A stretch of 64,000 nucleotides of DNA, from assembly GCA_964467345.1 (NCBI GenBank), contig CAYXPY010000006.1:5303-69302 (forward strand), given 5' to 3'. The position numbers were made by a program, and so were the translations under genes. Each line of letters starts with the position of its first letter. Within the stretch, counting starts at the first letter, position 1. This document shows, piece after piece, positions 33,939 to 62,300 of the stretch. The notes under the pieces are model-generated. The model had not been told where the DNA came from and ran no database searches. It saw only the letters and a program-made list of their open reading frames with translations. Source of the stretch: an uncultured Thermoplasmatales archaeon (GTDB lineage: Archaea > Thermoplasmatota > E2 > DHVEG-1).

Positions 33939-33944
33939 AGGACA

Positions 33945-35541: not shown

Positions 35542-35746
35542 AACAAGATATCATGTATTTTCTCTCTTATAAGCATTTTTCATACTATTTATATCACTTC
35601 GGTTGACAAGGGTTATTTTTCGGTATGTTTTGTGTTCAAAGCCCTTTTCTCTTCTTATTTAATGGTGCAACAAAGTAGCACACTCAAAACCTTCGGAATA
35701 CTCAAAAAAAAAAATAGAAAGAAAGGCGAGGTGTTATATGATATCG

Positions 35747-45416: not shown

Positions 45417-45896
45417 GTGCTCGATACAACACTTCTCATCGTCTATCTCGTCGTCATGCTACTGACGTTTCTATTCATGGAAGCAGTCGCGTGGTTCCTT
45501 CACAAATACGTCATGCATGGGTTTGGATGGTTCCTCCATGAAGATCATCATCGATATACAAAGAAACGTTTTGAAAAAAACGATGTCTTTGGGTTGTTCT
45601 TCGCAGGACTTTCAATCATTCTCATTTTCACCGGCTTCTTTGGAGGCTTTGATATACGCTTCTTCCTTGGTATTGGTGTTGCGATGTACGGTGCTGGGTA
45701 TTTCTTGGTACATGATATTTTCTTCCACCGGCGTGTAAAAATAAAATACCGACCGAAAAGCAAGTACATCAAACGCGTCTTACATGCCCATTCTGTCCAT
45801 CATCAAAAAAGCAAAGCACATGAAGGGATCTGCTTTGGATTTCTCTACGCAAGTAGGCAGTATGTGTTGCCTACGGAGAATTCAGCGTCAAACTGA
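45417..45896 (+). CDS. crtZ: Beta-carotene hydroxylase (CrtZ, fatty acid hydroxylase superfamily)
   Basis: MEAVAWFLHKYVMHGFGWFLHEDHH, FEKNDVF, YFLVHDIFFHRR, HAHSVHH, CFGFL. Confidence 0.92.
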   Translation: MLDTTLLIVYLVVMLLTFLFMEAVAWFLHKYVMHGFGWFLHEDHHRYTKKRFEKNDVFGLFFAGLSIILIFTGFFGGFDIRFFLGIGVAMYGAGYFLVHDIFFHRRVKIKYRPKSKYIKRVLHAHSVHHQKSKAHEGICFGFLYASRQYVLPTENSASN

Positions 45897-45921: not shown

Positions 45922-46275
45922 TTAGACTGTGATTGATTTGGTTAGTTTTCCAAACAAACTGCAATATGCAGTGACTGTCAGTTCGTCACCACTTATCGCA
46001 GTGACATTATAATTATAGCGGAAAAAGAATAACCGTTGTTGATTCGTATAGGATTCACTAGTATACAGCTCCCCATTTTTTTCAACGTCAACCTTATACA
46101 CATAATGGACTTTGGGGGCTAGCGAAAAATGCAGGATTAAGACCTGCAGGGTGTCAGGTTCATAGTCGAGTCTCATGTACCGTGGGTTATGGGCGGCTGC
46201 CTGCATGCTTACCATCAGTGCTCCGATGAGAAGCATGATCACAAACAACGTATACGTTCTATACTTCATATTCAC
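45922..46275 (-). CDS. Small secreted hypothetical protein
   Basis: Signal peptide followed by AHNP; KVHYV...AYCSLFG; starts 6 nt downstream of the GSDH-like stop. Confidence 0.7.
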   Translation of the reverse strand: MNMKYRTYTLFVIMLLIGALMVSMQAAAHNPRYMRLDYEPDTLQVLILHFSLAPKVHYVYKVDVEKNGELYTSESYTNQQRLFFFRYNYNVTAISGDELTVTAYCSLFGKLTKSITV

Positions 46276-46281
46276 ATTCTC

Positions 46282-47856
46282 CTATTCAACCGTTAGATGC
46301 CAAATCTCCCCGGATCGTAAGAAGGATCCAATAAAACGTGTCGTCACCACATAGATCTCCCCGTTTTCATCCTCCCCGAAACCAAAGACGAACCGTTTCA
46401 AAGGTTTCTCATTTGCCAAAGAGAATTCGAATCGTTCCCATACGCCTGGCTCGATCTCAGCGAGATAATACAGCTTCCCATCAGGTTTTGTAAACTGTGT
46501 GCTCCAGTCGCCGAACACATATAATCCTATGAGCGACGATGACTGGGTGCCTCTATAGACATACCCCCCGATGATCGAACGTCCTACGAAATGACTGTAC
46601 TCATGGATCGGAGGCTTAAGCGTCTCGATACTGATGTTCAGATATTCCGCTAACTCCGGGTCATAGGGATGTGTCCCCTCAAGGATCCGCCATCCATAGT
46701 TCCCTCCGCTTTCCACGATATCGATTTCTTCCCATTCGTCCTGGCCTACGTCTGCGACATACAGCGCTCCAGTGAGCTGATCAAATGAGAATCGATATGG
46801 GTTGCGGAAACCATATGCGTAGATTTCGTCAAGGCCCTGGGTTCCGACGAAAGGATTGTCTGGTGGAATCGCATATGGTGTGTCTCCATCAACATCAATT
46901 CGAAGGATTTTACCAAGGAGCGTACTGGTATTCTGTCCGTTCCCGATGTCTCCATGCAGATCACCAGCTCCACCACCATCGCCCACCCCGATATACAAGT
47001 ATCCATCTGGTCCGAATGCCAGCTGACCACCGTTATGGTTTGCCTCTGGTTGGTCGATACGAAGGATGATGTTCTCCGAAGACGGGTCCGCGATGTTGGG
47101 ATCCTCAGCTGAGACCGTGTACTCTGCGATGATACTTTCATGGTCTACCCCTTCTGCGGTTTTTGGTCCACTGTAGTATACGAAGAACCGACCGTTGGTC
47201 TCATACTCTGGATGAAACGCAAGACCAAGCAGCCCTCGTTCATCATAGAGTAAGTTGAGCTTGACCATCTTGCTTGTCAGATCTAAAAAAGGTGGCGAAA
47301 CCTGGATTTCCCCGTCGTCAATGACATAGATGATCCCGGGTTGGTCTGCCACAAAGAGACGGTTTGTTCCATCTCCTGCGACGGTAAGCATTGTTGGCGC
47401 CTTCATGCCCGCGGCAACCAATTCTACTGTCGCGGTTAGTGCGTTGCTATCACCAGGGATAAGCTGGGTAAATAGACCACGCAGACGTGCCCGAATGGTT
47501 CTTACATCCTCGATACCTTCTGATGCATTTGCGGTGACCGTAATAGTTGTCTTCCCAAAACCAAACACAAAGGGGACTTTGATTCCCACCACGTTTCCTG
47601 GGCGTATTAAGGAAATCGCCCCTTCTGTTTTTTTACCAAAAACTATAAGACCACCATCAAGGTCGATATTCCAGGATATATTCGTCAAATTCACTATTCC
47701 CTGGTTACGGATCACAGCCTGGATACCCAGACCTCCCGTGATAGCCTCTACTTCAATGGCTAGCGATGGTAAAGAACTCACCTCTCTTCTGTCGTCTATG
47801 TGTAAACCAGTTGCATATAGACTTGGGGCTAAGAGCAATAAACAGCTTACGATCAC
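46282..47856 (-). CDS. Secreted PQQ-dependent sugar dehydrogenase-like (GSDH) beta-propeller with an N-terminal Ig-like domain
   Basis: ERGLLGLAFHP, NHNGGQLAFGPDGYLYIGVGDGG, GKILRIDVD, AYGFRNPYRFSFD, GGNYGW. Confidence 0.88.
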   Translation of the reverse strand: MIVSCLLLLAPSLYATGLHIDDRREVSSLPSLAIEVEAITGGLGIQAVIRNQGIVNLTNISWNIDLDGGLIVFGKKTEGAISLIRPGNVVGIKVPFVFGFGKTTITVTANASEGIEDVRTIRARLRGLFTQLIPGDSNALTATVELVAAGMKAPTMLTVAGDGTNRLFVADQPGIIYVIDDGEIQVSPPFLDLTSKMVKLNLLYDERGLLGLAFHPEYETNGRFFVYYSGPKTAEGVDHESIIAEYTVSAEDPNIADPSSENIILRIDQPEANHNGGQLAFGPDGYLYIGVGDGGGAGDLHGDIGNGQNTSTLLGKILRIDVDGDTPYAIPPDNPFVGTQGLDEIYAYGFRNPYRFSFDQLTGALYVADVGQDEWEEIDIVESGGNYGWRILEGTHPYDPELAEYLNISIETLKPPIHEYSHFVGRSIIGGYVYRGTQSSSLIGLYVFGDWSTQFTKPDGKLYYLAEIEPGVWERFEFSLANEKPLKRFVFGFGEDENGEIYVVTTRFIGSFLRSGEIWHLTVE

Positions 47857-48033: not shown

Positions 48034-48942
48034 GTGAAACTCGTTTACCTGTGGCAGATAGTAAAATTAGCACGAATGCCGATTGTTCTGGCAGTGATAC
48101 CGATTTTCCTTATCGGTGTCTTGTTCGCACTTCGTTCTGGAGTGTCCTTTTCTCTTGTCAATTTCCTCTGGGGTTTTAGCATCTTATTTATCATTGAGAT
48201 AGCAGCGTCCTTTGCAAACGATTTCTATGATTACGACGCGGATAAACACAACAGACAATTTGGTTTCTCTGGCGGGAGTGGAGTCTTACTCGAATATCCA
48301 GAACTGCTCCCATTTGCAAAATGGGCATCAGTCATGATGTTTATCCTTGCCCTCATCTTAACAGGTTTGTTTATCGTTGTCGCATCACTGCCTCTTTGGG
48401 TCATCGCTTATATCGGTGTTGCCGTGTTTTTTTGTTGGTTTTACACCGCACCGCCACTTCGTCTTGTATATAGAGGTCTTGGTGAAATACCTCATCTATT
48501 CGCAGGAATCATGTTCCCTGGATGGGGGTATCTTATCCTGACTGGGACTATCACATCTGATCTCCTCATTTTTGCAATCCCCTTTGGGTTTCTTGGTCTA
48601 ACAGTGATACTGAATTTTGAGATACCTGACAGGGAAGCCGATATCCATGGGGGGAAACGAAATCTCGTCGTGATGAAAGGTCGGTATTTTTCTTTTCTCA
48701 TAATTTTTTTATTTTATCTGGTTACTTTTCTTTATTTTTTTATTCTCGCAGTCTTTGGCTGGTTTAATGATATCATCAATCCATGGGTGATTACAATTCT
48801 TGCGTTTCTCCCTGTATCCCTCTCTTTTATCGCTATCATTAAAAAATCTATACAACAAGATATCGCAACAAAATACGCCATACGAAATGCGATCGCTGGC
48901 TTTCTTTCGTCGTTTCTAATAATGGCATCCCTTTTATTTTAA
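48034..48942 (+). CDS. UbiA-family prenyltransferase (MenA-like)
   Basis: ANDFYDYDAD, SGGSG, YTAPPLRLVYRGLGE, EIPDREADIHGGKRNL. Confidence 0.85.
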   Translation: MKLVYLWQIVKLARMPIVLAVIPIFLIGVLFALRSGVSFSLVNFLWGFSILFIIEIAASFANDFYDYDADKHNRQFGFSGGSGVLLEYPELLPFAKWASVMMFILALILTGLFIVVASLPLWVIAYIGVAVFFCWFYTAPPLRLVYRGLGEIPHLFAGIMFPGWGYLILTGTITSDLLIFAIPFGFLGLTVILNFEIPDREADIHGGKRNLVVMKGRYFSFLIIFLFYLVTFLYFFILAVFGWFNDIINPWVITILAFLPVSLSFIAIIKKSIQQDIATKYAIRNAIAGFLSSFLIMASLLF

Positions 48943-49092: not shown

Positions 49093-49911
49093 ATGAAAAA
49101 AAGAACTGCAATAGTCTTGGCAATAATGCTGCTGCTCTCAAGCTTTGTCGTTGTAGGGACCACACAATCTCATCAATTAAATGACGATACTATTGAAATG
49201 AAACATGAGATTCAACCATGGTCAACACTCCAATCAGACGATGACATTACGATATCCTTTTCAAAGGCCCCATTGTCCTTAGGAGTAAATATTGAAATAC
49301 AAAACAACGGAAATGAGACCTATCAAGACGTACAATGGAGTTTTCGAGCAAAACCACAGATCTCTGGAACCGGGCTTATTTACAAAGACCAGATACGATC
49401 CGGGGTGATTGACCAACTTGGTTCCAATGAGCTGGTGACAATTCCCTTACGACCTTTGAAGGGGCAAACTTCGAGTCCTTTTGGGCTTGGGTTGTTCTAT
49501 TTTAACGCCTCGGTCAGCACCTCAGATGTCTTCTTCCGCTCTTCACAGCTGTGTTGGCTGGTGTTCTTTTTCATGGTTAATCTGAAACCAACCTACATGG
49601 ATATAGCGCCTGCAGAAGCATACAGCTTATATGAAAATGGGACTTTTAACCTCATCATCGATGTGGTTGGCTTGAATATCTATAGCCTTGGTCATCTCCC
49701 TGGCGCTGTGAATTATGTCTGGGCTGATGGGACATTAAATCAGACGATCCCCACTCTTGACAAAAACCTAACCTATCTTGTCTACTGTCACACCGATCCA
49801 CCTTCCACCGCAAGTGCTCAAGCGTTGGTCAATGCAGGGTTTTCCAAAGTCTATCGATTAGAAGGAAATTATCGAGCCTGGGTTGATGCAGGCTACCCTA
49901 CAGAAACCTAA
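49093..49911 (+). CDS. Secreted protein with an Ig-like domain and a C-terminal rhodanese domain
   Basis: Signal peptide; IIDV...GHLPGAVN...LVYCHTD...LVNAGFSKVYRLEGNYRAWVDAGYP. Confidence 0.85.
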   Translation: MKKRTAIVLAIMLLLSSFVVVGTTQSHQLNDDTIEMKHEIQPWSTLQSDDDITISFSKAPLSLGVNIEIQNNGNETYQDVQWSFRAKPQISGTGLIYKDQIRSGVIDQLGSNELVTIPLRPLKGQTSSPFGLGLFYFNASVSTSDVFFRSSQLCWLVFFFMVNLKPTYMDIAPAEAYSLYENGTFNLIIDVVGLNIYSLGHLPGAVNYVWADGTLNQTIPTLDKNLTYLVYCHTDPPSTASAQALVNAGFSKVYRLEGNYRAWVDAGYPTET

Positions 49912-50017: not shown

Positions 50018-50737
50018 ATGATTATCAACTATCTTATCTTAGACATCCTTATAATCTTATTTCCGTTCTTACTTTCATTTAAGTGGAAATTTGCTTATTA
50101 TCGGTACTACAAGGCATTGTTCCCTGCGATTGCTATCGTAGGCACTGGCTATATCATCTGGGATGCGATTGTCACGGCGCGAGGAGACTGGTGGTTCAAC
50201 TATGAGTATCTCTCGGGAATCACCATCATCGGACTACCTCTTGAAGAGATCTTATTCTTCATTGTTGTCCCCTATTCCTGTATATTCATCTATGAGAACC
50301 TTGAGTATTTCTTTCCTGATAAAAAAATAAGATTCAACAAGATCTTCTATGTTGTTTTGATCGTATTGTTCGTTATCGGTGGACTTGCCTTCTATCATCA
50401 GGACTATACGATCCTTGCTCTGATGTCGTGTGCGTTCTTTTTCCTAGTAGCACTTTGGCGTTCCCCAGACATCCTGCAATCCCGGAACTACTGGCTCTAC
50501 ATCGGGATTTCGATGATTCCCTTCATCATTTTCAATTATCTCTTGACCTCCATTCCGATCGTTCTGTATAATCCAGCGGCCATATGGGGTGGCGATGGTC
50601 TTTGGAACGGACGGTTCTTCACCATTCCTCTTGAGGATTTCTTTTACAATTACTCGATGCTGTCCTTTTATCTCCTCGTATACGTATATTTCAAAAAACG
50701 ATGGATATCCAATAAAAAAGATAATTCTCACAGGTGA
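50018..50737 (+). CDS. crtY: Lycopene beta-cyclase, fused CrtYc/CrtYd (archaeal membrane type)
   Basis: Two repeats: IWDAIV...GDWWFN...GLPLEEILFFIVVPY and FNYLL...Y...IPLEDFFY. Confidence 0.88.
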   Translation: MIINYLILDILIILFPFLLSFKWKFAYYRYYKALFPAIAIVGTGYIIWDAIVTARGDWWFNYEYLSGITIIGLPLEEILFFIVVPYSCIFIYENLEYFFPDKKIRFNKIFYVVLIVLFVIGGLAFYHQDYTILALMSCAFFFLVALWRSPDILQSRNYWLYIGISMIPFIIFNYLLTSIPIVLYNPAAIWGGDGLWNGRFFTIPLEDFFYNYSMLSFYLLVYVYFKKRWISNKKDNSHR

Positions 50738-50746
50738 TACAACTTG

Positions 50747-50790
50747 TTTATGATTCTATATGATGTAATCATAAAATATTTATGCTATTA
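50747..50790 (+). promoter_or_regulatory. Inverted repeat overlapping a BRE/TATA-like element upstream of crtI
   Basis: TTTATGATT-N11-AATCATAAA (50747-50775) running into AAAATATTTATG. Confidence 0.35.
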
Positions 50791-50813
50791 CACATTCGTT
50801 GATAAAAAAAGGG

Positions 50814-52301
50814 ATGAACGTGGCTGAAAAAAAAATCATCATCATCGGTGCTGGATTCGGTGGCATGTCTCTTGGGGCACTGCTTGCCAAGGAAGGACAT
50901 CAGGTAACCATCCTTGAAAAAAACGACCAGCCAGGGGGACGAGCGATCGTTTGGAAAGAAAAAGGATTCGTCTTCGACATGGGACCGTCCTGGTACCTCA
51001 TGCCTGATGTGTTTGATAAATTCTTTGCGGAATTTGGGAAAAAACCAGATGATTATTACAAGCTTGTCCGACTCAATCCCGCGTACCGAGTGTTTTTCAG
51101 CAAAGATGAAATCGTTGATGTGTCACCTGACCTTGAACAGAACCTGCAGCTCTTCGAACGCTACCAGAAAGGAGGACGTGAACAACTAAAAAGATATCTT
51201 GCTGCAGCTGAGTATCAGTATCAAATTGCGATGAATGAGTTCATCTACAAGGAATACCGCCATCTCTGGGATTTCTTCAGCCTCCGACTGCTGCTTAAGG
51301 GCAGCAAACTGCATATCTTCACCAGCCTGGATGAATACGCCAAACGGTACATCACCGATCCCAAGATGCGGAAAATACTGGAATACACGATGGTGTTCCT
51401 TGGTGGGACACCCTTTGATACCCCTGCCTTGTATTCCCTGATGTCCCATGTCGACTTCAACTTAGGCGTCTGGTACCCCGATGGCGGATTTGGGGCGCTT
51501 GCAAAGGGATTTGAACGACTCGCTACCGAACAAGGTGTGGTTTTTGAGTATAACGCTGAGGTGGAAAAGATAACTGTCAGTGGCAATCGTGTCACCGGTG
51601 TGAAAACTGCAAAAGGCGACATGGCTGCTGATGTTGTGATCGCCAACGCTGATTACCCGTACGTCGAAACCCATCTGTTGGAAAAACAATATCAAACCTA
51701 TCCTGAGGAGTACTGGAACAAAAAAGCTATCGCTCCCTCAGCTCTCCTGATGTATCTTGGGGTGAAAGGAAAAATCAAGGCGTTTGCACATCATAACCTA
51801 TATTTCGCGCCTCAATGGGAGGACCATTTCAACACCATCTTCCATGACCCCCGATGGCCGCAGGACCCCTCCTACTATGTCAGCTGTCCATCGAAAACCG
51901 ACCCAACCGTGGCACCCGCCCAGGACGAAAACATTTTCATCCTCATCCCGGTAGCAGCAGGTCTACCAGACACGCAAGAAACCCGGGAGAAATATTTCAC
52001 GAAAGTCATGGACCATCTCGAGGAACTCACTGGGGAAAACATCAAGGACAGACTGATAGTGAAACGACTGTTCGCACATCAAGATTTCACACAACAATAT
52101 CATGCGTACAAAGGCACTGCTCTTGGTCTGGCACATACCTTAGGGCAGACCGCAATCTTCCGCTCCTCCCATAAGAGTAAAAAAGTAAAAGGGCTGTATT
52201 ACACCGGACACTACACACACCCAGGCATTGGAGTGCCTATGGTTATCATCTCCTCCCAAATCGTGGCTTCGGAGATAAGGAACGCATATGATCATCGATA
52301 A
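50814..52301 (+). CDS. crtI: Phytoene desaturase
   Basis: IIGAGFGG, GFVFDMGPSWY, YPDGG, YHAYKGTALG, HPGIGVPMVIIS. Confidence 0.95.
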   Translation: MNVAEKKIIIIGAGFGGMSLGALLAKEGHQVTILEKNDQPGGRAIVWKEKGFVFDMGPSWYLMPDVFDKFFAEFGKKPDDYYKLVRLNPAYRVFFSKDEIVDVSPDLEQNLQLFERYQKGGREQLKRYLAAAEYQYQIAMNEFIYKEYRHLWDFFSLRLLLKGSKLHIFTSLDEYAKRYITDPKMRKILEYTMVFLGGTPFDTPALYSLMSHVDFNLGVWYPDGGFGALAKGFERLATEQGVVFEYNAEVEKITVSGNRVTGVKTAKGDMAADVVIANADYPYVETHLLEKQYQTYPEEYWNKKAIAPSALLMYLGVKGKIKAFAHHNLYFAPQWEDHFNTIFHDPRWPQDPSYYVSCPSKTDPTVAPAQDENIFILIPVAAGLPDTQETREKYFTKVMDHLEELTGENIKDRLIVKRLFAHQDFTQQYHAYKGTALGLAHTLGQTAIFRSSHKSKKVKGLYYTGHYTHPGIGVPMVIISSQIVASEIRNAYDHR

Positions 52302-53181
52302 AACGTTCTTCTCTATCTTTCGCAAAGGAAGTCGTACCTACTTCTACAGTAGCATTTTTTTTCCAATGCACATACGACGAGAAGTATTCATCCTGTATGG
52401 GTTTGTCAGGAAAACCGATAATTACGTTGATGTCATCCCACAGGACCGTGACGGATTCTATGAGTTCAAAGAGAAATATTATCAGGCAAAACAAGGTAAA
52501 GAGACAGGAGATATCGTTATTGATTCGTTCGTCCGTTTAGCAGAAAAAAAGAAATTTCAGGATGAATGGATCGAGGCGTTCCTCCATTCCATGGAGATGG
52601 ATTTAACAAAGAAACGCTATGAGACCATCGATGAGGTGCTAGAGTATATCTACGGTTCTGCGGAAGTCATTGGTCTGATGATGGCAAAAATCATCGGACT
52701 GCCAAAAGAATCCTTCGAGCATGCCAAATACCTCGGACGAGCGATGCAATACATTAACTTCATCAGGGATATCGCCGAGGACCTGGATCTTGGACGGGTC
52801 TATTTCCCTCAAACTGATTTACGGAAACACGGACTGGCGAACCTCACCTATGACCATGTCAAAGACCATCCGGATCGATTCACGAATTTTCTTCAGACCC
52901 AGCTTGATCGGTACTGCCACTGGCAGGAGCATGCAGAGGAAGGATACCACTTCATCCCGAAACGATACCTGATATCCATCAAAACCGCATCGGAGATGTA
53001 TCATTGGACCGCTGAACAAATCTCAAACCATCCCTTTATCGTCTATGACATGAAAGTAAAACCTATGATATCAAAAATCCTTCTTACGGTGGTTTCCAAT
53101 CTCATCGATACCATGGGAACAAAATTCGGGACCTCCTTTTGTGTTGAAGCAACCCACGAAAAACATGATTCTTCAGAGTAG
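52288..53181 (+). CDS. crtB: Phytoene synthase
   Basis: KGSRTYFYSS, LYGFVRKTDNYVD, FLHSMEMD, YIYGSAEVIGLM, AMQYINFIRDIAED, GRVYFP. Confidence 0.95.
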   Translation: MIIDKTFFSIFRKGSRTYFYSSIFFPMHIRREVFILYGFVRKTDNYVDVIPQDRDGFYEFKEKYYQAKQGKETGDIVIDSFVRLAEKKKFQDEWIEAFLHSMEMDLTKKRYETIDEVLEYIYGSAEVIGLMMAKIIGLPKESFEHAKYLGRAMQYINFIRDIAEDLDLGRVYFPQTDLRKHGLANLTYDHVKDHPDRFTNFLQTQLDRYCHWQEHAEEGYHFIPKRYLISIKTASEMYHWTAEQISNHPFIVYDMKVKPMISKILLTVVSNLIDTMGTKFGTSFCVEATHEKHDSSE

Positions 53182-53186
53182 TTTCT

Positions 53187-54167
53187 ATGAATGGATTTGT
53201 CAAACCTCGCATCGTAATCAGTAAATGTATCGAATTCGAATTTTGTCGATATAATGGCCAGATAATCCGTAGTGACATCGTCAGTACGATGAAACCACAT
53301 GTTGAGTTCCTCCCGATATGCCCTGAGGTAGAAATTGGACTAGGTATACCCCGAGACCCTATCCGTATCATTGAAAAACAATCGAAAAAATATCTTGTTC
53401 AACCAACTACTGGCCGTGACGTCTCTGAAGATATGAAGAGGTTTACGGAGCGATTTCTTATTAGCCAAAAAGATATCGATGGTTTTTTGTTAAAATCCCA
53501 ATCCCCCTCCTGTGGGACCCGTGATGTGAAAATCTATCCTGCAATGACACCGTCTGCAGCAATCCGTCGAGAAGCAGGTTTTTTTGGTGACCACGTACTT
53601 ACAGATTTTCCTTTTTTGGCAATCGAAGATGAAATGCGTCTGCACAATCCAATCATACGAGAGCATTATTTTATGAAAATCTTTACGTTCGCTCGATTCC
53701 GCAGGATACAACAAGTTGGATTATTACAACCGCTACTTCGATTTCATACTGAAAATAAATTTTTACTAATGGCATACAGTCAAAAGGAGCTACGGAGTCT
53801 TGGCAACATCCTTGCCAACCAAGAAAAACAACCCTTACCTCGTGTCTTTTCAGAATACGAACAACATCTTCATACTGCATTTTCCAAAGCACCGCGGTAT
53901 ACCTCTCAAATCAACGTCCTTAATCATGTGTTTGGGTATGTCTCACAGGACCTCAAAGAAAATGAAAAAAAGTTCTATGCAAGCCTTTTACAGAAATTCC
54001 GTGATGGTCAGATTCCTCTGAGTGTCCTGATAAACCTTGTGAGATCCTGGGTGATACGATTTGATCAACCGTATCTCCTCCCGCAGACCTTTTTCCAACC
54101 CTATCCTGATGAGTTGTTCGATACTGAATCGATAAAAGCAAGCAACGTGAGAGATTTCTGGAAATGA
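53187..54167 (+). CDS. DUF523-DUF1722 protein (TudS/RudS-type 4-thiouridine desulfidase family, YbgA)
   Basis: ISKC...CRYNG, PICPEVEIGLGIPR, KSQSPSCG, AIEDEMRL, FHTENKFLLMAYS, YLLPQTFFQPYP. Confidence 0.9.
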   Translation: MNGFVKPRIVISKCIEFEFCRYNGQIIRSDIVSTMKPHVEFLPICPEVEIGLGIPRDPIRIIEKQSKKYLVQPTTGRDVSEDMKRFTERFLISQKDIDGFLLKSQSPSCGTRDVKIYPAMTPSAAIRREAGFFGDHVLTDFPFLAIEDEMRLHNPIIREHYFMKIFTFARFRRIQQVGLLQPLLRFHTENKFLLMAYSQKELRSLGNILANQEKQPLPRVFSEYEQHLHTAFSKAPRYTSQINVLNHVFGYVSQDLKENEKKFYASLLQKFRDGQIPLSVLINLVRSWVIRFDQPYLLPQTFFQPYPDELFDTESIKASNVRDFWK

Positions 54168-55066
54168 AGATAGGATACCCCTGCATTAACCGCTCCCTTT
54201 CCTGCAAGGGAGACCGTACGTTCCGTTTACGCTCGTATTCAGAAGAAAGACTGCAGCAGACCATTCAAAATAACCTTGAGTGCTTGTTCCATATATTACG
54301 ATTCAATCTCGACCACGGGCTGCTCTTTTTCAGAATCTCCTCAGACCTCATTCCCTTCGCATCTCATCCTGTCTGTACGTTCCCCTGGCAGAGGGTGTTT
54401 CAAAAACGTTTCGAGGAAATCGGTCAGTTCATTATAAAAAACGACATGCGCATCTCGATGCATCCAGATCAATTCATCGTACTTAATACACCTAGGGAGG
54501 ACGTCTTTCAACGCAGTGTCGCAGAGATAGCCTATCATGCCAACGTCCTTGACCTCATGGGCCTTGATACATCAGTAAAAATACAGCTTCATGTTGGTGG
54601 CGTCTATGGGGAGAAGCAAAAAAGCATGGATCGGTTTATCAGTCGGTATCGCTCATTAGATGCTACATTGAAGCATAGACTTGTTATCGAAAACGATGAA
54701 AAAAGCTACAGCATCAAGGATTGTCTCCTGATACATGAAAAAACCAAGATTCCGGTTCTTTTTGATTATTTTCATCATACCTTGCTTAATGATCATGAAT
54801 CCTTAAGCGACGTGTTAGAATCCTGTAAAAAAACCTGGAAACCAAAAGACGGGATCCCTATGGTCGATTATAGTTCACAGAAGCCTCAAATGAAAAAAGG
54901 ATCACACGCAGAACATCTAAACAACCATGATTTTTCCAAGTTTGTTCATCAATCAAAACCATATGATTTCGATCTGATGTTGGAGATTAAAGATAAGGAG
55001 CATAGTGCAATTAAGGCACTCAAGATTCTACAATCTGATTACCGACTTGTCTCTCCAACAAAATAA
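54164..55066 (+). CDS. uvsE: UV DNA damage endonuclease
   Basis: MKIGYPCIN, FFRISSDLIPFASHP, RISMHPDQF, HVGGVYG, IENDEK, FDYFHH, MLEIKDKE. Confidence 0.95.
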   Translation: MKIGYPCINRSLSCKGDRTFRLRSYSEERLQQTIQNNLECLFHILRFNLDHGLLFFRISSDLIPFASHPVCTFPWQRVFQKRFEEIGQFIIKNDMRISMHPDQFIVLNTPREDVFQRSVAEIAYHANVLDLMGLDTSVKIQLHVGGVYGEKQKSMDRFISRYRSLDATLKHRLVIENDEKSYSIKDCLLIHEKTKIPVLFDYFHHTLLNDHESLSDVLESCKKTWKPKDGIPMVDYSSQKPQMKKGSHAEHLNNHDFSKFVHQSKPYDFDLMLEIKDKEHSAIKALKILQSDYRLVSPTK

Positions 55067-55075
55067 GAGGTTCTT

Positions 55076-55531
55076 ATGAATGAAAATAATCTAAAGAAAC
55101 AGATATTGCAATTATTTGAACATCAGCGGTTCGCTGTGATTGCCACAGAGAGAAACGGTCAACCCTACACCCATCTTGTCGCTTTTACCTTCACCCCTGA
55201 TTTACGCACACTCCTCTTTGCCACCAGACGGGACACACAAAAATACCTCAATATCAAAGAAAATCCATATGTCTCTGTTTTAATCGATAATCGTGAGAAC
55301 ACTCCTTCTGATCTGTCTGAAGCGATAACGGTCAATGCCCAAGGGCTGGCAACGGAAACACCCGATCTGAGCAAAGCGTATCATAGATTATTGGTAGAAA
55401 AACACCCTGGTCTATCATCATTTTTCGATGATCCTGCTTGTGCTCTCATTGAAGTCCATGTCAGGACCTATCAGGTTGTTCAGAAATTCGAACACATAGA
55501 TATCTTAAAAATACCAGATGAGAAAGCATAA
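55076..55531 (+). CDS. Pyridoxamine 5'-phosphate oxidase-like (split-barrel flavin-binding) protein
   Basis: FAVIATERNGQPYTHLVAF, FATRRDTQKYLNIKENPYVSVLIDNR. Confidence 0.88.
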   Translation: MNENNLKKQILQLFEHQRFAVIATERNGQPYTHLVAFTFTPDLRTLLFATRRDTQKYLNIKENPYVSVLIDNRENTPSDLSEAITVNAQGLATETPDLSKAYHRLLVEKHPGLSSFFDDPACALIEVHVRTYQVVQKFEHIDILKIPDEKA

Positions 55532-55542
55532 TTCACTGCGGT

Positions 55543-56193
55543 TCAGATACTATCAGGGAGATGCAGCTCATAGCCTCGACGAATAAGAGGGGTGTTTATT
55601 AACGCCCTGATGATGTCTAAAGGAGGGAACTGTTCCTTATAACCTAACACCGCGACATAATCCCCACCTTTTTGATACGGATCCCAATAATATACAGAGT
55701 ACGTTCCCGGAGTATTGATCGTCTCATCAAACCGAGGTCCTTGATAGTATGATTTTCCACCGAACGGTTCATAGAACTCTTCTCGGGGAGTCCCTGGTGG
55801 TACGTCTTGTTTTACGATCACACCATATCCAGGCGGAACATCAAATGGTAATGTCTGATTCGGCGGGGGCAGTCCAGGCCCAACTAACGCGAACCATGGG
55901 GTAAAATTCGCGTAAAAACCATCACAAACCGGTACGATGGCCTCAATGAAGACCTGGAGCGGTTGATCCTTAATCTGGAAACTATACACATCGATATCGG
56001 TCGAAGGGTTGATCCAGTCTGTCTCCAACCATGAATACACCGCTATCGATTGAGTGATTGACCTTCGCACCTGAAATGGTTTTTGTATGGTGGAGTCACG
56101 ATGTTCTAAATACGGCACATGAGCTGAGAGAGATGGTAAAAGACAAAGACCGGCACATAAGCCAGCAAAGACTATTAGTACGGTTCTTTTCAT
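55543..56193 (-). CDS. Secreted hypothetical protein, divergent from the heliorhodopsin gene
   Basis: Start reassigned to ATG 56193 (MKRTVLIVFAGLCAGLCLLPSLSAHVP); FYEPFGGKSY, GTYSVYYW, GDYVAVLGYKEQF. Confidence 0.75.
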   Translation of the reverse strand: MKRTVLIVFAGLCAGLCLLPSLSAHVPYLEHRDSTIQKPFQVRRSITQSIAVYSWLETDWINPSTDIDVYSFQIKDQPLQVFIEAIVPVCDGFYANFTPWFALVGPGLPPPNQTLPFDVPPGYGVIVKQDVPPGTPREEFYEPFGGKSYYQGPRFDETINTPGTYSVYYWDPYQKGGDYVAVLGYKEQFPPLDIIRALINTPLIRRGYELHLPDSI

Positions 56194-56323
56194 ACTATTA
56201 TCTAAGGAGATTTCGCTATATAAACATTTTTTATTACGCATTTCTGGGTTATAACACAATTCCATAAAACAAATAAAGCATAACTGATTTCTCAATAGGG
56301 AGTGTTTGAGGGAGAAGATACCC

Positions 56324-57241
56324 ATGCATGAAATAAAAATTATGTGTCCAAAATGCCGCCACCAGTTCATCACCAAAGGTGAACCAAATGAAAAAATCTA
56401 TGTGACATGCCCGTCCTGCAAGACCTATGGGACGTTCACTGTTCCAGCAGGAACCTGTGATCCGAACAAAGTAGAGTGTTTCACCGATACCGGTGATGCC
56501 CGTTTCAAGAAACTACGAATCTTCAATGCAGTCATGGGTGTTATCCACATGATCCAAGGGTTCCTCATGCTTCTTTTAAGTAATGCATTTACACTTCCCC
56601 TGACATACACCCATCCTGAATACAATGCTATTACGAACACGATTTCTCCAGTATCTGAAACCTTTTTCAACGTCCAAATTGGACCACTCGTTGCCTTATT
56701 TCTCTTCATGTCTGCTACCGCTCATATTCTCATCTCAACAGTATTATACAAATGGTATGTAAAAAAACTTCAAAACCATATCAACCCTGCTCGATGGTAT
56801 GAATATTCTTTCAGCGCATCGTTGATGATCTTCCTTATCGCCATGCTTGTGACGATCTATGACTTTGGGACCTTGCTAGCCTTATTTACACTTACCGCAG
56901 TCATGAACCTCATGGGTCTCGTGATGGAGCTGCATAATCAAACAACGACAAAAACAAACTGGACTTCTTTTAATATCGGATGTATCGCTGGTTTTATCCC
57001 TTGGGTCGTCATCTTCATTCCCCTTGTTACTGCTGCTTCTGTACCAGATTTTGTCATTGCTATATTTATAACAATTGCAGTGTTCTTCAATCTGTTCGCC
57101 ATCAACATGTTCTTACAGTATAAGAAAATCGGGAAATGGAAGGAGTACCTCTACGGGGAACGCATGTACATAGTCCTAAGCCTTGTTGCGAAATCCGCCC
57201 TTGCCTGGCAGGTGTTTGCTGGGACGCTTCGACCGATGTAA
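56324..57241 (+). CDS. heR: Heliorhodopsin with an N-terminal zinc-ribbon extension
   Basis: IHMIQG, AHILIS, NPARWYEYSFSAS (counterion Glu), GLVMELHNQ, SLVAKS (retinal Lys); N-terminal CPKC-x17-CPSC. Confidence 0.95.
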   Translation: MHEIKIMCPKCRHQFITKGEPNEKIYVTCPSCKTYGTFTVPAGTCDPNKVECFTDTGDARFKKLRIFNAVMGVIHMIQGFLMLLLSNAFTLPLTYTHPEYNAITNTISPVSETFFNVQIGPLVALFLFMSATAHILISTVLYKWYVKKLQNHINPARWYEYSFSASLMIFLIAMLVTIYDFGTLLALFTLTAVMNLMGLVMELHNQTTTKTNWTSFNIGCIAGFIPWVVIFIPLVTAASVPDFVIAIFITIAVFFNLFAINMFLQYKKIGKWKEYLYGERMYIVLSLVAKSALAWQVFAGTLRPM

Positions 57242-57298: not shown

Positions 57299-58222
57299 TT
57301 ATATGTTACAAACCTCGGAGCCGTTTTCCGAACAAATCTGAATAGTGCATTCAATGATATTGAATTTCTTCAGGAGATAATCATTGATCCGTGAGATGAC
57401 CTCTTCTTGTTTCCCCTGGATCTTGCTTTCATTGATTTGTACATGAGCGGAGAACACAAGCATATCCGGGGTAATCGACCAAAGGTGAGCATTGTGGAGT
57501 TCCCGGAGTTCTGAAAAATTCTTTTTAAGATCATCAGAAATCATATCGACATTAAGACCTTTCGGGGAGGTCTCCAGAAGTATCCGTGTCGAGTCTTTCA
57601 GTACCCCCCATGCCCAGAGAACAATGATAAGAGAAATACCAATGCTGACAAAAGGATCGATAAACGTCCAATTGGTGAACATAATGATGATTGCCGCGAT
57701 CACAATCCCAACAGATGAGACCGCATCAGCAAACATATGATAAAAAATACTACGGATGTTCAGATCCCCCTTATGCGATCCCCGCAGGATCAGAATGCTT
57801 ATAATGTTGACCGTAAGACCGATGAATGCGATAAGAAGCATCTCCAAACCAAGGATTTCCACAGGGTTAAGCAATCGGAGGATCGCTTCATAGACAATGA
57901 GTCCAACAATCACAAGAAGGAACAATCCGTTCACAAACGCAGCCAACACCTCAGCGCGGTATAACCCAAACGTCCGGTGATGGCAGGGGGGTCTCCGAGC
58001 AATAACGATTGCGACAAGCCCAATGAGTAACGCGAACACATGCGTGAACATATGGCCCGCGTCGCTGAGTAACGCCATACTGTTGGTAAGATACCCCCCG
58101 ATGATCTCCAGGATCATCACGATCGAGGTAATACCAAGTGAAAAAACCAGTTTTTTTTGCTCGACATGTCGATATTCAAAGAGATGTTCAGAAAATGCTT
58201 TTTGGACTGGGTTCTTGGTCAT
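57299..58222 (-). CDS. Cation diffusion facilitator (CzcD/ZitB-like Zn/Co/Cd exporter)
   Basis: ALLSDAGHMFTH, TFGLYRAEVLAAFVNG, HMFADAVSS, HLW, AHV. Confidence 0.92.
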   Translation of the reverse strand: MTKNPVQKAFSEHLFEYRHVEQKKLVFSLGITSIVMILEIIGGYLTNSMALLSDAGHMFTHVFALLIGLVAIVIARRPPCHHRTFGLYRAEVLAAFVNGLFLLVIVGLIVYEAILRLLNPVEILGLEMLLIAFIGLTVNIISILILRGSHKGDLNIRSIFYHMFADAVSSVGIVIAAIIIMFTNWTFIDPFVSIGISLIIVLWAWGVLKDSTRILLETSPKGLNVDMISDDLKKNFSELRELHNAHLWSITPDMLVFSAHVQINESKIQGKQEEVISRINDYLLKKFNIIECTIQICSENGSEVCNI

Positions 58223-58259: not shown

Positions 58260-60122
58260 TTAAAACAGATCGACTACTTTGAATTTTCCTTCCATCTGCT
58301 GAATTGCTTTGTTTGGCAGGGTGAAACGCATGACATTCCCCGTATTATTTTCATTTTCGACCCATATTTTTCCACCATGGGAAAGAACAATGCCCCGTGA
58401 GATAGAGAGCCCTAGCCCTATATCGCCACTTGTTCGGTCTGTACCCGCATCAGCTTGATAGATGACGTCGAACATTTTCTTCTGTTTCTGCTTTGGTATC
58501 CCACGTCCTTCATCCTGTATCTCAAAGAGCACCTCACCAGGTTCTTTATTTACTCTGACTGTTATCGTGGAATTCTCTGGGGACGATTGTATCGCGTTCT
58601 GCAGGAGGTTTATCAACACCTGTTTCACGCGTTCCTTGTCAATCGTAAGCTCAGGGAGCTCCTTGGGTATTTCTGTGCTTATCCGTATTTGTTTTACATC
58701 GGCTGCAGGCTCTGAGGTCCCAATTGCATCCTCTACTAACCGTTTGACATTGGTTTTCTGTGGGGAGAACTTCATTGTCCCTGACTCAAGATGAACGATG
58801 TCAAGGATATCCTGCAGAAGTTGTGTTGACCGGTTCGTATTTGCCACAACCACACCTAACCCTTTTTTCTGTTCATCATTCACCGGGCCAAGGCTTTCCA
58901 GAAGCAGGATCTCGGCATATCCTTTGATGGTAGACATCGATGATCGCAGCTCATGGGTGGTGATATCAAGGAAGTTTGATTTTGTCCGATCGAGTTTCTT
59001 TAACTTTGTGTTTTGTTGCTCAAGCCTCTTCTGCGACTTTTGCAATCTCTCCCGTTCGATATGGAGATCCCCTATGGTTCGTTTATATTCGTTCAATCTC
59101 TTTTTTAACAACGTGTTCTGTTTTGTCAGTTCAACAGTTCGCTCCTGGACCTTTTTTTCTAACCAATAATGGGCTTTCCGCAGCTCCCCTTCTATTTTTT
59201 TCCTATCTGTTACGTCATCCATGGTCGAATAGATAGAAAGCACAGCACCTGACTCGTTAAAACACAGGAAATCATTGATCACAAAAACACGAGGTTCACC
59301 GTTTTTCGCTAGATATGTCCGTTCGTGTCCACCGGTGTATGATTTTCTACTTGTTATTTTTTCCCTAAAAGAGTTTTTTGCGGTTTCTTGCTCGTCACAA
59401 TGGATGAAATTAAAAATCGGTTTCCCTATGATCTCCTGTCGTTCATATCCCAGCAATTGACACCATTTTTCATTCACATCGGTAATCGTCCCTTCTGCTG
59501 ATAGTGTATGATAGGGGACTGGGGCCTTCTCATAGAGCTGTTTGAACTTCTCCTCTGAGACCCGTAACGCCCGTTCCATCTGTTTGTTTTGCGAATTATC
59601 TTTAATGATCCCGATAGAACCGATCACATTCCCGATACGGTCCTTCAATACACTCAGGGAAATATCGACATCGACAAGGGCGTTGTCTTTCCGTATCATT
59701 TGTGTTTCCAGATGATGTTGAATCCCTTTCTGCCTGATGTTCTCCGATCTTATCTTTTGCCATTCTTCTTTTGGGTAGAGGTATTTGACCGGTTTCATCA
59801 TCAGCTCGTTTTTACTCATCCCAAGAAGCTTTTCTGTATAGGTGTTCCAATGCACGATCCGCTCGTTCTCATCAGTAAGCATGATAGCGACTGCGGAATT
59901 ATCAAAAATAATTCGATATTTTTCAATTGGATCTCCCAAATCAATCGTTGGTATGTCTTCCCCTTTATGATGCCGAAGGATTGAAAACATTGATACAAAA
60001 GAATCGTTTTCACATTCTTCGTCTACAGGTTTTTTTGGTTCTTCCATGCTTCGACTATGAAGCCGTCCCAATCGCTCCTCTGCTCGTAATGTTTTTATTA
60101 TCTCAGGATCATCGTTTTTCAT
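58260..60122 (-). CDS. Cytoplasmic PAS-PAS sensor histidine kinase
   Basis: Two PAS/PAC repeats; THELRSSM (H-box), NLLQNAI, DEGRGIP, GLGLSIS; no TM segment. Confidence 0.9.
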   Translation of the reverse strand: MKNDDPEIIKTLRAEERLGRLHSRSMEEPKKPVDEECENDSFVSMFSILRHHKGEDIPTIDLGDPIEKYRIIFDNSAVAIMLTDENERIVHWNTYTEKLLGMSKNELMMKPVKYLYPKEEWQKIRSENIRQKGIQHHLETQMIRKDNALVDVDISLSVLKDRIGNVIGSIGIIKDNSQNKQMERALRVSEEKFKQLYEKAPVPYHTLSAEGTITDVNEKWCQLLGYERQEIIGKPIFNFIHCDEQETAKNSFREKITSRKSYTGGHERTYLAKNGEPRVFVINDFLCFNESGAVLSIYSTMDDVTDRKKIEGELRKAHYWLEKKVQERTVELTKQNTLLKKRLNEYKRTIGDLHIERERLQKSQKRLEQQNTKLKKLDRTKSNFLDITTHELRSSMSTIKGYAEILLLESLGPVNDEQKKGLGVVVANTNRSTQLLQDILDIVHLESGTMKFSPQKTNVKRLVEDAIGTSEPAADVKQIRISTEIPKELPELTIDKERVKQVLINLLQNAIQSSPENSTITVRVNKEPGEVLFEIQDEGRGIPKQKQKKMFDVIYQADAGTDRTSGDIGLGLSISRGIVLSHGGKIWVENENNTGNVMRFTLPNKAIQQMEGKFKVVDLF

Positions 60123-60365
60123 ATCATCACTCCTTGATTCGATGGCCTGTTCTCATTACACTGTAAACCTACGTTAAACTGGTCAGTATCATCTAATGAA
60201 GACCTATGTGTCATTGCAGTTCCCATCCGTATTATAACAACAAAAGTAACCATTTTTTGGTATAAAACATTAATGGCTCTCAACATAAAATTTTTTGATT
60301 GGAAGAAACCATCTCAGAAAAACTTATATAGCATATTGTTTGTTAATGATACAAGGGGAATATAT

Positions 60366-62300
60366 ATGAAAAAACTACTCGCAATTGTCGTATTAGGGGT
60401 ATTGCTTGCAACTGGATTAGCAACAGGCAATTCCTTACACGCCGAAAATACTACTATGAAAACAAGCGAAACCATCGCATGTTCAGAGATAAACGTGGTC
60501 GAATCAAACGAATATATCTCACTGGCATTTGATGGATCAACCTCGTTTCTGATGCGACCCGACGAGCCGGTGATCCCAAGAATAACAAGGGTCTACGTCC
60601 TTCCGTTCCAAGCTTTTGACATCCAGGTCTCTGTTGATTTCTCATCACCACATGCATACACACTTGACCGGCTCATTCGCCCGGCGCCACACCCCATCAT
60701 CGATGGCAAAGAAACAACAGAGATGATAAGTACTCCCTCAGAAACCATCTATCAGAGCGCTGAGATTTACCCACGAGAATCATTTTCCTATTCCACAAGC
60801 ACTGGTCTTTCAGGGGCAGAGCATGTGGTCTTCCTCTCGGTGACCGTTTATCCTCTTCGGTACTCGCCTCTTGAGAACACGGTTTTTGTTTCTGACCAAT
60901 GTGTCATTACCATCTCCTACGAACCTCCTCGCAACCCACAGGTGTTTTCTGATGAGTACGACTTGCTTGTGATTGCTCCTGCTGACTATGAGGCTGCGCT
61001 GCAACCTCTTGTTGCTCATAAGAACTCTTTTGGGATGAGCACCCTGTTTGTCAGCCTTGAGTCAATCTACAGTGAGATTACTGCAGGCAGGGATGATGCA
61101 GAGAACGTAAAACTCTATATCAAAAAGGCGATAGAGGATCTTGGGGTGACGTATGTGTTGCTCGTCGGCGGCATGACACTTCAAAAGGAGGAATGGATTG
61201 TCCCTGTTCGGTATACAAACAATCATGTCGGAGTAGGCTATGAGCTTGGGGTTATCAGTGATTTGTATTTTGCTGATATTTACAAGGAAAATGGGACTGC
61301 GTTTGAAGACTGGGACAGTAACGGGAACGGGATTTTTGCTGAGTACACATCAACAAGTAAAGATATCATTGACGGATCGCCTGATATTTACATCGGTCGG
61401 CTTGCTTGCAGTTCTGTAAAAGAGGTGTCCCTCATGGTTGATAAAATTTTAGACTACGAGACGACCCCGGCGGATGATTCCTGGTTTAAACGGATGCTTC
61501 TCATTGGTGGGGATACCTATCCTGAATCCGGTGGTGTGGGTGCCTATGAGGCTGAGATAGATACGAACGTCTCTGCAGGTTACATGACGGGGTTTGAGTT
61601 CGAACGACTCTTTGCTTCCTCAGGGACGCTTACTGGCCAAAAAAGTGTTGAACAAGCGATAAACGCTGGTGTTGGATTTATCCACTGCGCGGGACATGCG
61701 AACCCTTCGACGCTAGTGACGCATCCTCCGCTGAATAAAACCGAGAAGATAACGATCATGGGGATGTATAATATCCCACCGATGAATGCGTTCTACGCTT
61801 TGATTTACCAGAAACGAGGTATCGCTGGTTTTCTTGAGGAACTTAAAGAGCGATGGATGCCAAGGTTACGGAACGGGGAAAAACAACCGGTTGTCGTGGT
61901 CGGTGGATGTCACAATAGCCAGTTCAACGTCACGCTCATGAACATTCGCACCTACGGTTTTACCCATGCGTATGGCTATGGTATTCACGTCCCGAAATGC
62001 TGGAGCTGGTGGTTGACAAGCAAAAAGGACGGTGGCGCGATTGCGACTATGGGTAATTCAGGACTGGGCATGGGATTACCCGGGTTTGATTACCCCAATG
62101 GTCTTGACGGCTGGCTTCTCCCCCGGTTCTTCTACAACTACAACCAACTAGGGCTACATCACGTCGGGGAGGCACATAGTGCTGCCATCGCTGATTATGT
62201 CAACGAATTTGATATCAATGCAGATGATGCAGATCGTCAGATGGTAGAACAATGGGTTCTTCTAGGAGACCCAAGCCTGATGATCGGAGGATATTCGTAA
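60366..62300 (+). CDS. Second secreted C25 (gingipain-like) peptidase, no PKD tail
   Basis: Start reassigned to ATG 60366 (MKKLLAIVVLG); YVLLVGG, YIGRL, HCAGHAN (His), VGGCHNSQF (Cys), WVLLGDPSL. Confidence 0.9.
   Translation: MKKLLAIVVLGVLLATGLATGNSLHAENTTMKTSETIACSEINVVESNEYISLAFDGSTSFLMRPDEPVIPRITRVYVLPFQAFDIQVSVDFSSPHAYTLDRLIRPAPHPIIDGKETTEMISTPSETIYQSAEIYPRESFSYSTSTGLSGAEHVVFLSVTVYPLRYSPLENTVFVSDQCVITISYEPPRNPQVFSDEYDLLVIAPADYEAALQPLVAHKNSFGMSTLFVSLESIYSEITAGRDDAENVKLYIKKAIEDLGVTYVLLVGGMTLQKEEWIVPVRYTNNHVGVGYELGVISDLYFADIYKENGTAFEDWDSNGNGIFAEYTSTSKDIIDGSPDIYIGRLACSSVKEVSLMVDKILDYETTPADDSWFKRMLLIGGDTYPESGGVGAYEAEIDTNVSAGYMTGFEFERLFASSGTLTGQKSVEQAINAGVGFIHCAGHANPSTLVTHPPLNKTEKITIMGMYNIPPMNAFYALIYQKRGIAGFLEELKERWMPRLRNGEKQPVVVVGGCHNSQFNVTLMNIRTYGFTHAYGYGIHVPKCWSWWLTSKKDGGAIATMGNSGLGMGLPGFDYPNGLDGWLLPRFFYNYNQLGLHHVGEAHSAAIADYVNEFDINADDADRQMVEQWVLLGDPSLMIGGYS

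Follow-up and report, generated by a model that had tools for sequence, protein, structure and literature searches.

The 64,000-nucleotide stretch of DNA analysed here (the window), from contig CAYXPY010000006.1 of an uncultured Thermoplasmatales archaeon, encodes a heliorhodopsin (HeR) with an N-terminal zinc ribbon (Znf-HeR), close to a set of carotenoid biosynthesis (crt) genes and to genes for the repair of ultraviolet (UV) damage. The region is probably a photoprotection module, composed of carotenoid synthesis and UV-damage repair, that lies beside a sensory zinc-ribbon HeR. Within such a module a crtZ-like hydroxylase would convert beta-carotene to zeaxanthin, and the carotenoids, produced alongside the repair enzymes, would chiefly protect the membrane from light and act as antioxidants. 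The HeR would sense light for the module and pass the signal on through its zinc ribbon, possibly also via an adjacent PAS histidine kinase. Beta-carotene, the presumed product of the lycopene cyclase, would also be the obvious precursor of retinal.

Gene identities were assigned from a listing of open reading frames (ORFs) and from Pfam and NCBIfam profile searches with curated cut-offs. The genes at the centre of the region are the following.

45417-45896, + strand: crtZ-like beta-carotene 3-hydroxylase, 159 residues (Pfam FA_hydroxylase, His motifs)
50018-50737, + strand: fused heterodimer-type lycopene cyclase (CrtYc/Yd type, crtYcd; Pfam Lycopene_cyc, PF18916, and TIGR03462)
50799-52301, + strand: CrtI-family phytoene desaturase (NF058655, TIGR02734)
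52288-53181, + strand: phytoene-synthase-family enzyme, CrtB by context (Pfam SQS_PSY)
53187-54167, + strand: 2-thiouracil desulfurase (TudS) fused to DUF1722 (YbgA-like; Pfam)
54164-55066, + strand: UV damage endonuclease UvdE/UvsE (Pfam UvdE, TIGR00629)
55076-55531, + strand: PNPOx-like split-barrel flavin/F420-type protein (Pfam PNPOx_N)
55543-56193, - strand: sec215, orphan secreted beta-sandwich protein, 216 residues (no match in Pfam or NCBIfam)
56324-57241, + strand: zinc-ribbon heliorhodopsin, 305 residues (Pfam and NCBIfam HeR)

The order crtYcd-crtI-crtB-tudS/DUF1722-uvdE-PNPOx is co-directional on the + strand, and the successive intergenic gaps from the cyclase to the PNPOx-like gene measure 61, -14, 5, -4 and 9 nt, a minus sign denoting overlap. 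This tight co-directional packing suggests a single transcription unit made up of the three crt genes and the three genes for repair or stress. Support for the latter three comes from Pfam matches to 2-thiour_desulf (116 bits) and DUF1722 (138 bits) for the fused protein, from UvdE (228.5 bits) and TIGR00629 (202.7 bits, cut-off 124.45) for the endonuclease, and from PNPOx_N (52.6 bits) for the split-barrel protein, for which TIGR03618 stays under its cut-off. A preliminary description of this DNA had assigned a carotenoid pathway beside HeR to 50018-57241; half of this interval is non-carotenoid (TudS/DUF1722, UvdE, the PNPOx-like protein and sec215), a half that description did not mention.

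Relatives of the locus were taken from contigs encoding HeR homologues and from 80 loci of one species-representative genome scan. Linkage was counted over loci of at least 12 kb whose HeR is at least 60% identical (Thermoplasmatota-type), for genes within 10 kb. On this basis crt genes lie near HeR at 9 of 37 loci and UV-repair genes at 10 of 37, and eight of the nine crt-positive loci also carry UV-repair genes. The crt genes thus have a closer association with UV repair than with HeR. That HeR and the crt and repair genes have no functional link, being adjacent by descent in one lineage only, is scarcely probable. Such a view would suit the 28 Thermoplasmatota-type loci that have no crt gene within 10 kb, among them L043, with a HeR 89% identical to that of the window; yet loci whose HeRs range from 61% to 96% identity keep the same set of genes close to HeR, in three or more gene orders, and chance alone, with a single-copy crt cluster in a genome of about 2 Mb, would put that cluster within 10 kb of HeR in only about 1% of cases. 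The crt/repair module stands beside HeR far above chance placement, yet its presence there is not obligatory.

The gene order of the window is kept in its closest relatives (HeR 85-96% identical), namely L068 (Thermoplasmatales archaeon SM1-50), L010, L053, L001 and L002. A class II cyclobutane pyrimidine dimer photolyase (448 residues; L001 7869-9215) lies between the PNPOx-like gene and sec215 in L001, L002 and L053, while the same junction is without photolyase and measures only 11 nt in the window (55531-55543) and likewise in L068, L010 and L011. Between the photolyase-bearing variant and the window, DUF1722, UvdE and PNPOx are 51-64% identical as against 84-88% for crtY, crtI and crtB; the segment has thus been exchanged as a cassette. 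Farther away, lineages with HeRs 72-76% identical (L021, L023, L024, L035 and L039) and lineages with HeRs 61-63% identical that have no zinc ribbon (L055-L059) hold the same island set near HeR in shuffled orders. This set comprises crtB, crtI, crtY and crtZ, UbiA, DUF1722, UvdE, PNPOx, photolyase, SOUL, a GSDH-like protein with a small secreted protein, and LEA2. Three soil metatranscriptome runs yielded contigs at least 99% identical over crtY/I/B, sec215, HeR and the GSDH gene, a record of presence only. Contig depth in these runs was highest over the GSDH/sec117 region.

Several points weigh against the reading as a photoprotection module with HeR as its light sensor. No regulator or transducer link has been shown between HeR and the crt and repair genes, nor did the window reveal a response regulator. 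The HeR gene is its own transcription unit, cut off from the operon by the oppositely oriented sec215. Linkage to crt within 10 kb is confined to the nine loci counted above, the metatranscriptome contigs may be DNA and are silent on light induction, and photoprotection leaves the origin of retinal unexplained.

The individual carotenoid genes are recognised with differing precision. The cyclase has two PF18916 (CarR/Lycopene_cyc) stretches (E 3.2e-24) and matches TIGR03462 with 83.5 bits (cut-off 39.4); a tblastn search of plasmids with it gave no match. Judging from the co-occurring crtZ, it would form beta-rings, and not epsilon, gamma or C50 rings, on a C40 chain, and the conserved UbiA neighbour makes a prenylated or C50 product possible. 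CrtI matches NF058655 with 706.3 bits (cut-off 640) and TIGR02734 with 509.3 bits. The NCBIfam name of NF058655 is CrtID, bifunctional phytoene desaturase/3,4-desaturase; a literature search for 'CrtID' returned nothing relevant. The phytoene synthase candidate matches SQS_PSY with 178.4 bits, a family-level match only. It scores 82-94 bits against the NCBIfam CrtB models, the cut-offs of which are 480-550, and 118.8 bits against the HpnD equivalog, below the cut-off of 278.6; its assignment as CrtB rests on gene context. No geranylgeranyl diphosphate synthase is encoded in the window. Geranylgeranyl diphosphate is made by archaea for their lipids, and this step is assumed to be supplied by archaeal lipid synthesis.

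The crtZ-like gene lies about 4 kb upstream of the crt block and is the sole hydroxylase candidate in the window. Its product matches FA_hydroxylase with 41.5 bits (cut-off 31), matches no model in NCBIfam, shows the His motifs HKYVMH, HEDHH, HDIFFH and HSVHH in translation, and shares 39.6% identity, across 91% of its length, with the product of a Pantoea ananatis pPANA10 gene that abuts crtB. As judged from its sequence, it has the marks of the CrtZ type: it is a small membrane protein of the di-iron FA_hydroxylase class, has His boxes and is homologous to the Pantoea gene product. Since the gene recurs in the island at seven loci, the end product is probably a xanthophyll, likely zeaxanthin, and goes beyond a mere retinal precursor. 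A xanthophyll would suit photoprotection and a role as antenna equally well. The preliminary description had placed genes sufficient to make and hydroxylate beta-carotene beside the HeR within 50018-57241. The cyclase, CrtI and the SQS_PSY enzyme do lie within that interval by their profiles, whereas the hydroxylase is outside it and CrtB is recognised at family level only. In the closest relative, L001, the region upstream of crtY (1-2218) holds three genes that are missing from the corresponding position of the window: another SQS_PSY gene, a crtZ of its own and a gene for an HpnE-like amine oxidase. The crtZ of L001 is only 50% identical to that of the window, which stands 4 kb away in another context.

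The HeR ORF (56306-57241) matches Pfam PF18761 with 317.7 bits (cut-off 26.7) and NCBIfam NF038020 with 341.1 bits (cut-off 100), and the earlier observation of a HeR at this place is borne out by these matches, which are far over the cut-offs. Translation is taken to start at ATG 56324 and not at TTG 56306, because homologues have 305 residues and begin MHEIKIMCPKC. The protein is identical at 187 of 252 residues (74%) to TaHeR (PDB 6IS6), and its K290 (the Schiff-base lysine, in transmembrane helix 7) and E160 (the counterion, in transmembrane helix 3) align with K238 and E108 of TaHeR. An inverted topology, retinal binding and a slow photocycle would be expected of this HeR, by analogy with a structure-solved protein of that degree of identity. 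The extra N-terminal part of about 50 residues contains C8-P-K-C11, 17 residues, and C29-P-S-C32, that is, the CxxC-17-CxxC pattern of the Znf-HeRs, and gives a weak match to Pfam Zn_ribbon_4 (E 7e-4). Named HeR homologues come from Thermoplasmatota metagenome-assembled genomes, and the window itself bears the archaeal markers EMG1/NEP1, FEN1, PurP, an RFC-like protein and MtrA.

Further genes flanking the HeR and the crt block are the following.

45922-46275, - strand: sec117, small secreted protein, paired with the GSDH-like gene
46282-47856, - strand: GSDH-like beta-propeller of the pyrroloquinoline quinone type (Pfam GSDH, 142 bits)
48034-48942, + strand: UbiA-family prenyltransferase (Pfam UbiA, 77.3 bits)
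49093-49911, + strand: secreted protein with a C-terminal rhodanese domain (Pfam Rhodanese, 48.2 bits; signal-like N-terminus)
57299-58222, - strand: cation diffusion facilitator of the Zn/Co/Cd-type efflux class (Cation_efflux, 150.6 bits; ZT_dimer)
58260-60122, - strand: PAS-PAS histidine kinase (Pfam PAS_9, HisKA, HATPase_c)

The cation diffusion facilitator is convergent with HeR and is kept beside it in L001, L002, L010, L053, L068 and L043; the PAS histidine kinase is kept beside HeR in L001, L002 and L043. In the close clade the two genes stand directly downstream of HeR. Zinc recurs around HeR, in the zinc ribbon, the exporter and the hints of metal binding in sec215. Zinc binding has reportedly been published for TaHeR.

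The gene sec215 is divergent from HeR, with about 130 nt between them, and among the genes tested by homology it is the most frequent neighbour of HeR. It is found beside HeR at 18 of 80 species-level loci, in three orientations, crt-less loci included. Its protein has 322 relatives, and all of those with names are from Thermoplasmatota. An invariant A|HVPYxE follows the signal peptide, the His being the predicted first mature residue, and ELH occurs near the C-terminus. The AlphaFold2 model (mean predicted local distance difference test score 87.5) is a beta-sandwich with a C-terminal helix, the best Foldseek match of which is to the collagen-binding domains of clostridial collagenase (E 3e-4, target template-modelling score 0.64-0.70); the copper proteins MopE and CorA are matched only weakly. 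A profile search collected 953 family representatives, and some of the longer ones carry a fused Cu-binding_MopE motif or YtkA-like domain. From these features sec215 looks extracytoplasmic and is possibly metal-binding; it may bind metal or act as a partner of HeR on the outside of the cell. The longer ORF at this place (55543-56376, - strand, 277 residues) was considered as a hidden Blh and rejected, the product being a 216-residue secreted beta-sandwich with one signal peptide and not a multi-helix membrane protein. Distant homologues of sec215 (58-61% identity) have no HeR beside them in L099 and L100, and one in L101, of the same 58-61% group, lies near SOUL, photolyase, PNPOx, DUF1722 and UbiA genes. 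At L101 5633-6448 (- strand), on a metagenome contig, this homologue adjoins a Trp-rich multi-pass membrane protein of 271 residues and a DUF2834 protein, with no HeR within 5 kb. By the tests run, the 271-residue protein is neither a HeR nor a Blh.

Between 43453 and 47856 the window encodes a SOUL haem-binding protein, a LEA_2 protein, the GSDH-like propeller and sec117, and these recur with the HeR/crt island in the rearranged L024, L035, L039, L021 and L023. The GSDH-like protein matches TIGR03606 with 82.9 bits, under the cut-off, and its pairing with sec117 is found with HeR and crt also in L024, L035 and L039, in differing gene orders. In sec117, too, His is predicted as the first mature residue. 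The UbiA-family gene is conserved at 13 island loci; in L055-L059 it is directly upstream of HeR, after the photolyase. NCBIfam gives it weak MenA-like matches only, far under the cut-offs, and its homologues are Thermoplasmatota proteins named 'prenyltransferase' or auto-annotated as MenA. The nearest annotated relatives on plasmids adjoin DUF547 and redoxin genes and have no crt context. A tie to lycopene elongases was not found through NCBIfam, homologues or plasmid context. The UbiA-family protein could modify carotenoids (to C45 or C50) or make a prenylated quinone or chromanol antioxidant. The rhodanese protein is found among the relatives only in L068 and L023.

A source of retinal is not evident from the window. 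A Pfam scan of every window ORF of at least 100 residues that is not nested in a larger gene gave no BCD (Blh/Brp, PF15461), no RPE65 (PF03055) and no type 1 rhodopsin. A Blh hidden Markov model was built from three annotated plasmid-borne Blh seeds, obtained via a bacteriorhodopsin search of plasmids; all three are proteobacterial, and sensitivity for archaeal forms is limited. In a six-frame translation of the window it matched no ORF (best E 6.6), and it matched nothing in the 87 related HeR loci (about 1.2 Mb; best E 0.3), where the RPE65/CCD family was not scanned. The absence of Blh/Brp and RPE65 from the window, as first described, agrees with these searches; 'no blh' holds for the window and the HeR neighbourhoods only. 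With no recognisable cleavage gene in the window, retinal could come from blh or CCD elsewhere in the genome, be made by an unrecognised enzyme, arise by unspecific oxidative cleavage, or enter from outside via the fenestration of the HeR. The first and last of these would amount to a trivial answer, in which blh/brp or CCD is encoded elsewhere or retinal is scavenged and the crt cluster needs no special reading; this is fairly unlikely. Blh is often unlinked to rhodopsin genes, and the window covers only 64 kb of the genome. For TaHeR the uptake of exogenous retinal via the fenestration has been proposed, its host being seemingly unable to make retinal (PMC9385722). Whole-genome surveys, however, find HeR together with blh mostly where another rhodopsin is present (10.1101/2021.02.16.431466), and the window has no type 1 rhodopsin. 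That a conserved island gene makes retinal from beta-carotene in place of Blh is highly improbable. Among the conserved unknowns of the island, which also include LEA2 and the rhodanese protein, the candidates for such a role would be sec215, the UbiA-family and PNPOx-like proteins, SOUL, and the GSDH-like propeller together with sec117. The idea draws on the negative searches above, on the several island unknowns that are kept through rearrangements, and on the rarity of blh among HeR neighbours and in HeR-only genomes, for which an unknown retinal pathway has been invoked (Chazan 2021, 10.1101/2021.02.16.431466); a bacterium described as blh-less is also reported to make retinal (PMC7734400). 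None of the candidates has a likeness to carotenoid oxygenases, however. The sec215 protein is a secreted beta-sandwich of the collagen-binding (PPC) type with distant relatives fused to metal-binding motifs, and the GSDH-like protein, sec117 and sec215 have signal-like N-termini and hence would be outside the cell. PNPOx, SOUL and photolyase are general oxidative-stress neighbours of rhodopsins and are listed as recurrent rhodopsin neighbours by Chazan 2021.

The carotenoid could also serve HeR directly, zeaxanthin (or beta-cryptoxanthin) from the island being bound at the fenestration and feeding energy to retinal, as happens in xanthorhodopsin and Kin4B8, which would account for the crt linkage. 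One proposal, based solely on structure comparison and docking, is that HeRs bind xanthophylls of exogenous origin as antennas, and zeaxanthin was docked to a HeR (10.1101/2025.11.27.691015). The lateral fenestration that the preliminary description attributed to HeRs is matched in the window, where F216, C220, G223, F255, N256 and A259 correspond to Y164, C168, G171, F203, N204 and A207 of TaHeR, and all six positions of the fenestration or proposed carotenoid site are judged conserved. The recurrence of the crtZ-like gene, which makes a hydroxylated carotenoid a likely product, would also agree with an antenna. The six site residues occur, however, in 91% of all HeRs (10.1101/2025.11.27.691015), and in the present set the site pattern EK-[F/Y]CGFNA is found in 15 of 15 crt-linked and 60 of 70 unlinked HeRs. 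Since the site residues are the same with or without crt linkage, the sequence gives no specific support to an antenna; linkage to a xanthophyll pathway has, on these residues, left no mark on the fenestration site. At the position of the Gly that contacts the carotenoid in antenna rhodopsins (G201 of xanthorhodopsin, G198 of Kin4B8), HeRs hold Asn, here N256, by the alignment of the preprint (10.1101/2025.11.27.691015). In the HeR antenna literature no spectroscopic evidence for a HeR-carotenoid complex was found, only docking. The crt genes follow UV-repair genes more closely than HeR, and a slow-cycling sensor would gain little from an antenna. An endogenous antenna is decidedly unlikely on this evidence. 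Taken more broadly, it is very unlikely that the island supplies HeR chromophores in some undescribed way, whether zeaxanthin is an endogenous second chromophore or an unknown island gene does or assists the conversion of carotene to retinal or the delivery of the chromophore, in which case sec215 would be the extracellular partner of HeR. The preliminary description had offered a choice between an antenna and an unrecognised cleaving enzyme. In its favour, the window has no recognised cleaving enzyme, the site residues are kept and the crtZ-like gene recurs; the choice is incomplete, as the packing of crt with UV-repair genes points first to photoprotection. A photoprotection module is compatible with an antenna role of zeaxanthin, which is not needed to explain the linkage, and the antenna, novel cleavage and blh-elsewhere or scavenging explanations are not all mutually exclusive.

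Further features lie in other parts of the window. The regions 1-1496 (- strand), 8799-13111 (+ strand) and 60273-62300 (+ strand) include two gingipain-like C25 peptidases, after one of which comes a peptidyl-arginine deiminase of the Porphyromonas type that has PKD domains; a large secreted protein is cut off by the left end of the window. Such a set of secreted protease and deiminase is unusual for an archaeon. At 63058-64000 (+ strand) are homologues of MtrA and MtrH, to which relatives add Meth_synt_2 and a pterin-binding protein (L001 16747-19431); this is a methyltransferase system in a non-methanogen lineage. The stretch 19432-23124 (- strand) encodes a radical SAM/DUF3641 protein, a VTT-domain membrane protein, a CCG/Fe-S protein, a DUF2064 protein and a GT2 glycosyltransferase. 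From 32000 to 36000 the GC content is 0.365-0.393, compared with about 0.45 elsewhere, and three flavodoxin-like genes, DUF6114 and DUF4760 are found there; this low-GC stretch may be acquired DNA.

For the function of HeRs and the origin of retinal in blh-less genomes the locus is a clean natural test case, combining a close relative of TaHeR, whose structure is solved, a complete pathway to beta-carotene and zeaxanthin within one island, and few conserved unknown neighbours. Binding of zeaxanthin by this HeR, if true, would give the idea of HeR antennas its first experimental support, and production of retinal by an island gene, if true, would identify the missing non-Blh pathway.

With the antenna rhodopsins (xanthorhodopsin, Gloeobacter rhodopsin, Kin4B8 and HeimdallR) the present HeR shares a fenestration by the beta-ionone ring and the likely availability of a xanthophyll in the cell. 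Those proteins belong to type 1 and pump protons; their carotenoid contact is a Gly, and energy transfer has been measured in them. HeRs, by contrast, have inverted topology, Asn at the contact and no pumping, and their carotenoid binding is predicted by docking only. In haloarchaea the bop regulon comprises bop-brp-crtB1, blh and crtY, and lycopene is the branch point to bacterioruberin. The two systems are alike in linking an archaeal opsin with a CrtYc/d-type cyclase, CrtI and CrtB, with a UbiA-family enzyme nearby. Haloarchaea encode Brp/Blh, whereas none was found in the window; CruF was likewise not found in the window, and the haloarchaeal lycopene elongase LyeJ has no demonstrated relation to the UbiA-family protein seen here. 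Aurantimicrobium minutum KNC is reported to have rhodopsins including a HeR, carotenoid genes and a functional rhodopsin, blh being described as absent (Nakajima 2020, PMC7734400). It is a cultured actinobacterium for which direct evidence is reported, while the absence of blh here covers 64 kb.

TaHeR, from Thermoplasmatales archaeon SG8-52-1 (PDB 6IS6, 7U55), resembles the HeR of the window in the 74% identity over 252 residues, the counterion, the lysine and the fenestration. Its crystallised chain is without the zinc ribbon of about 50 residues, its Y164 corresponds to F216 here, and its host is thought unable to make retinal (PMC9385722), whereas here the pathway is encoded up to beta-carotene. 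The locus is a new instance of the 'light island' of Thermoplasmatota (Thermoprofundales-type) archaea, a cluster already described in two studies; the linkage and both the antenna and the cleavage ideas are already in the literature. In subgroup E of the Thermoprofundales (MBG-D), HeR is clustered with CrtZ, CrtB, CrtD, PhrB and UvsE (Mol Biol Evol 2022, PMC9585477), and that study predicted the synthesis of zeaxanthin and bacterioruberin, with HeR as a light sensor controlling the clustered genes. CrtZ, CrtB, a CrtD/CrtI-type desaturase, a cyclase and UvsE lie by HeR in both. The Thermoprofundales cluster has PhrB, whereas the window, L068, L010 and L011 are without photolyase, and HeR was said there to be 'always' with these genes, compared with the nine of 37 species-representative loci here. 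The Znf-HeRs of Thermoplasmatales are flanked by lycopene cyclase, phytoene desaturase, SQS_PSY, photolyase, UvdE and histidine kinase genes (Bulzu 2021, PMC8612252). With these the locus shares the N-terminal CxxC-17x-CxxC ribbon and the same flanking genes, and nothing essential differs; six sequences were listed in that study, and 46 of the 87 related HeR loci collected here align from the zinc-ribbon region.

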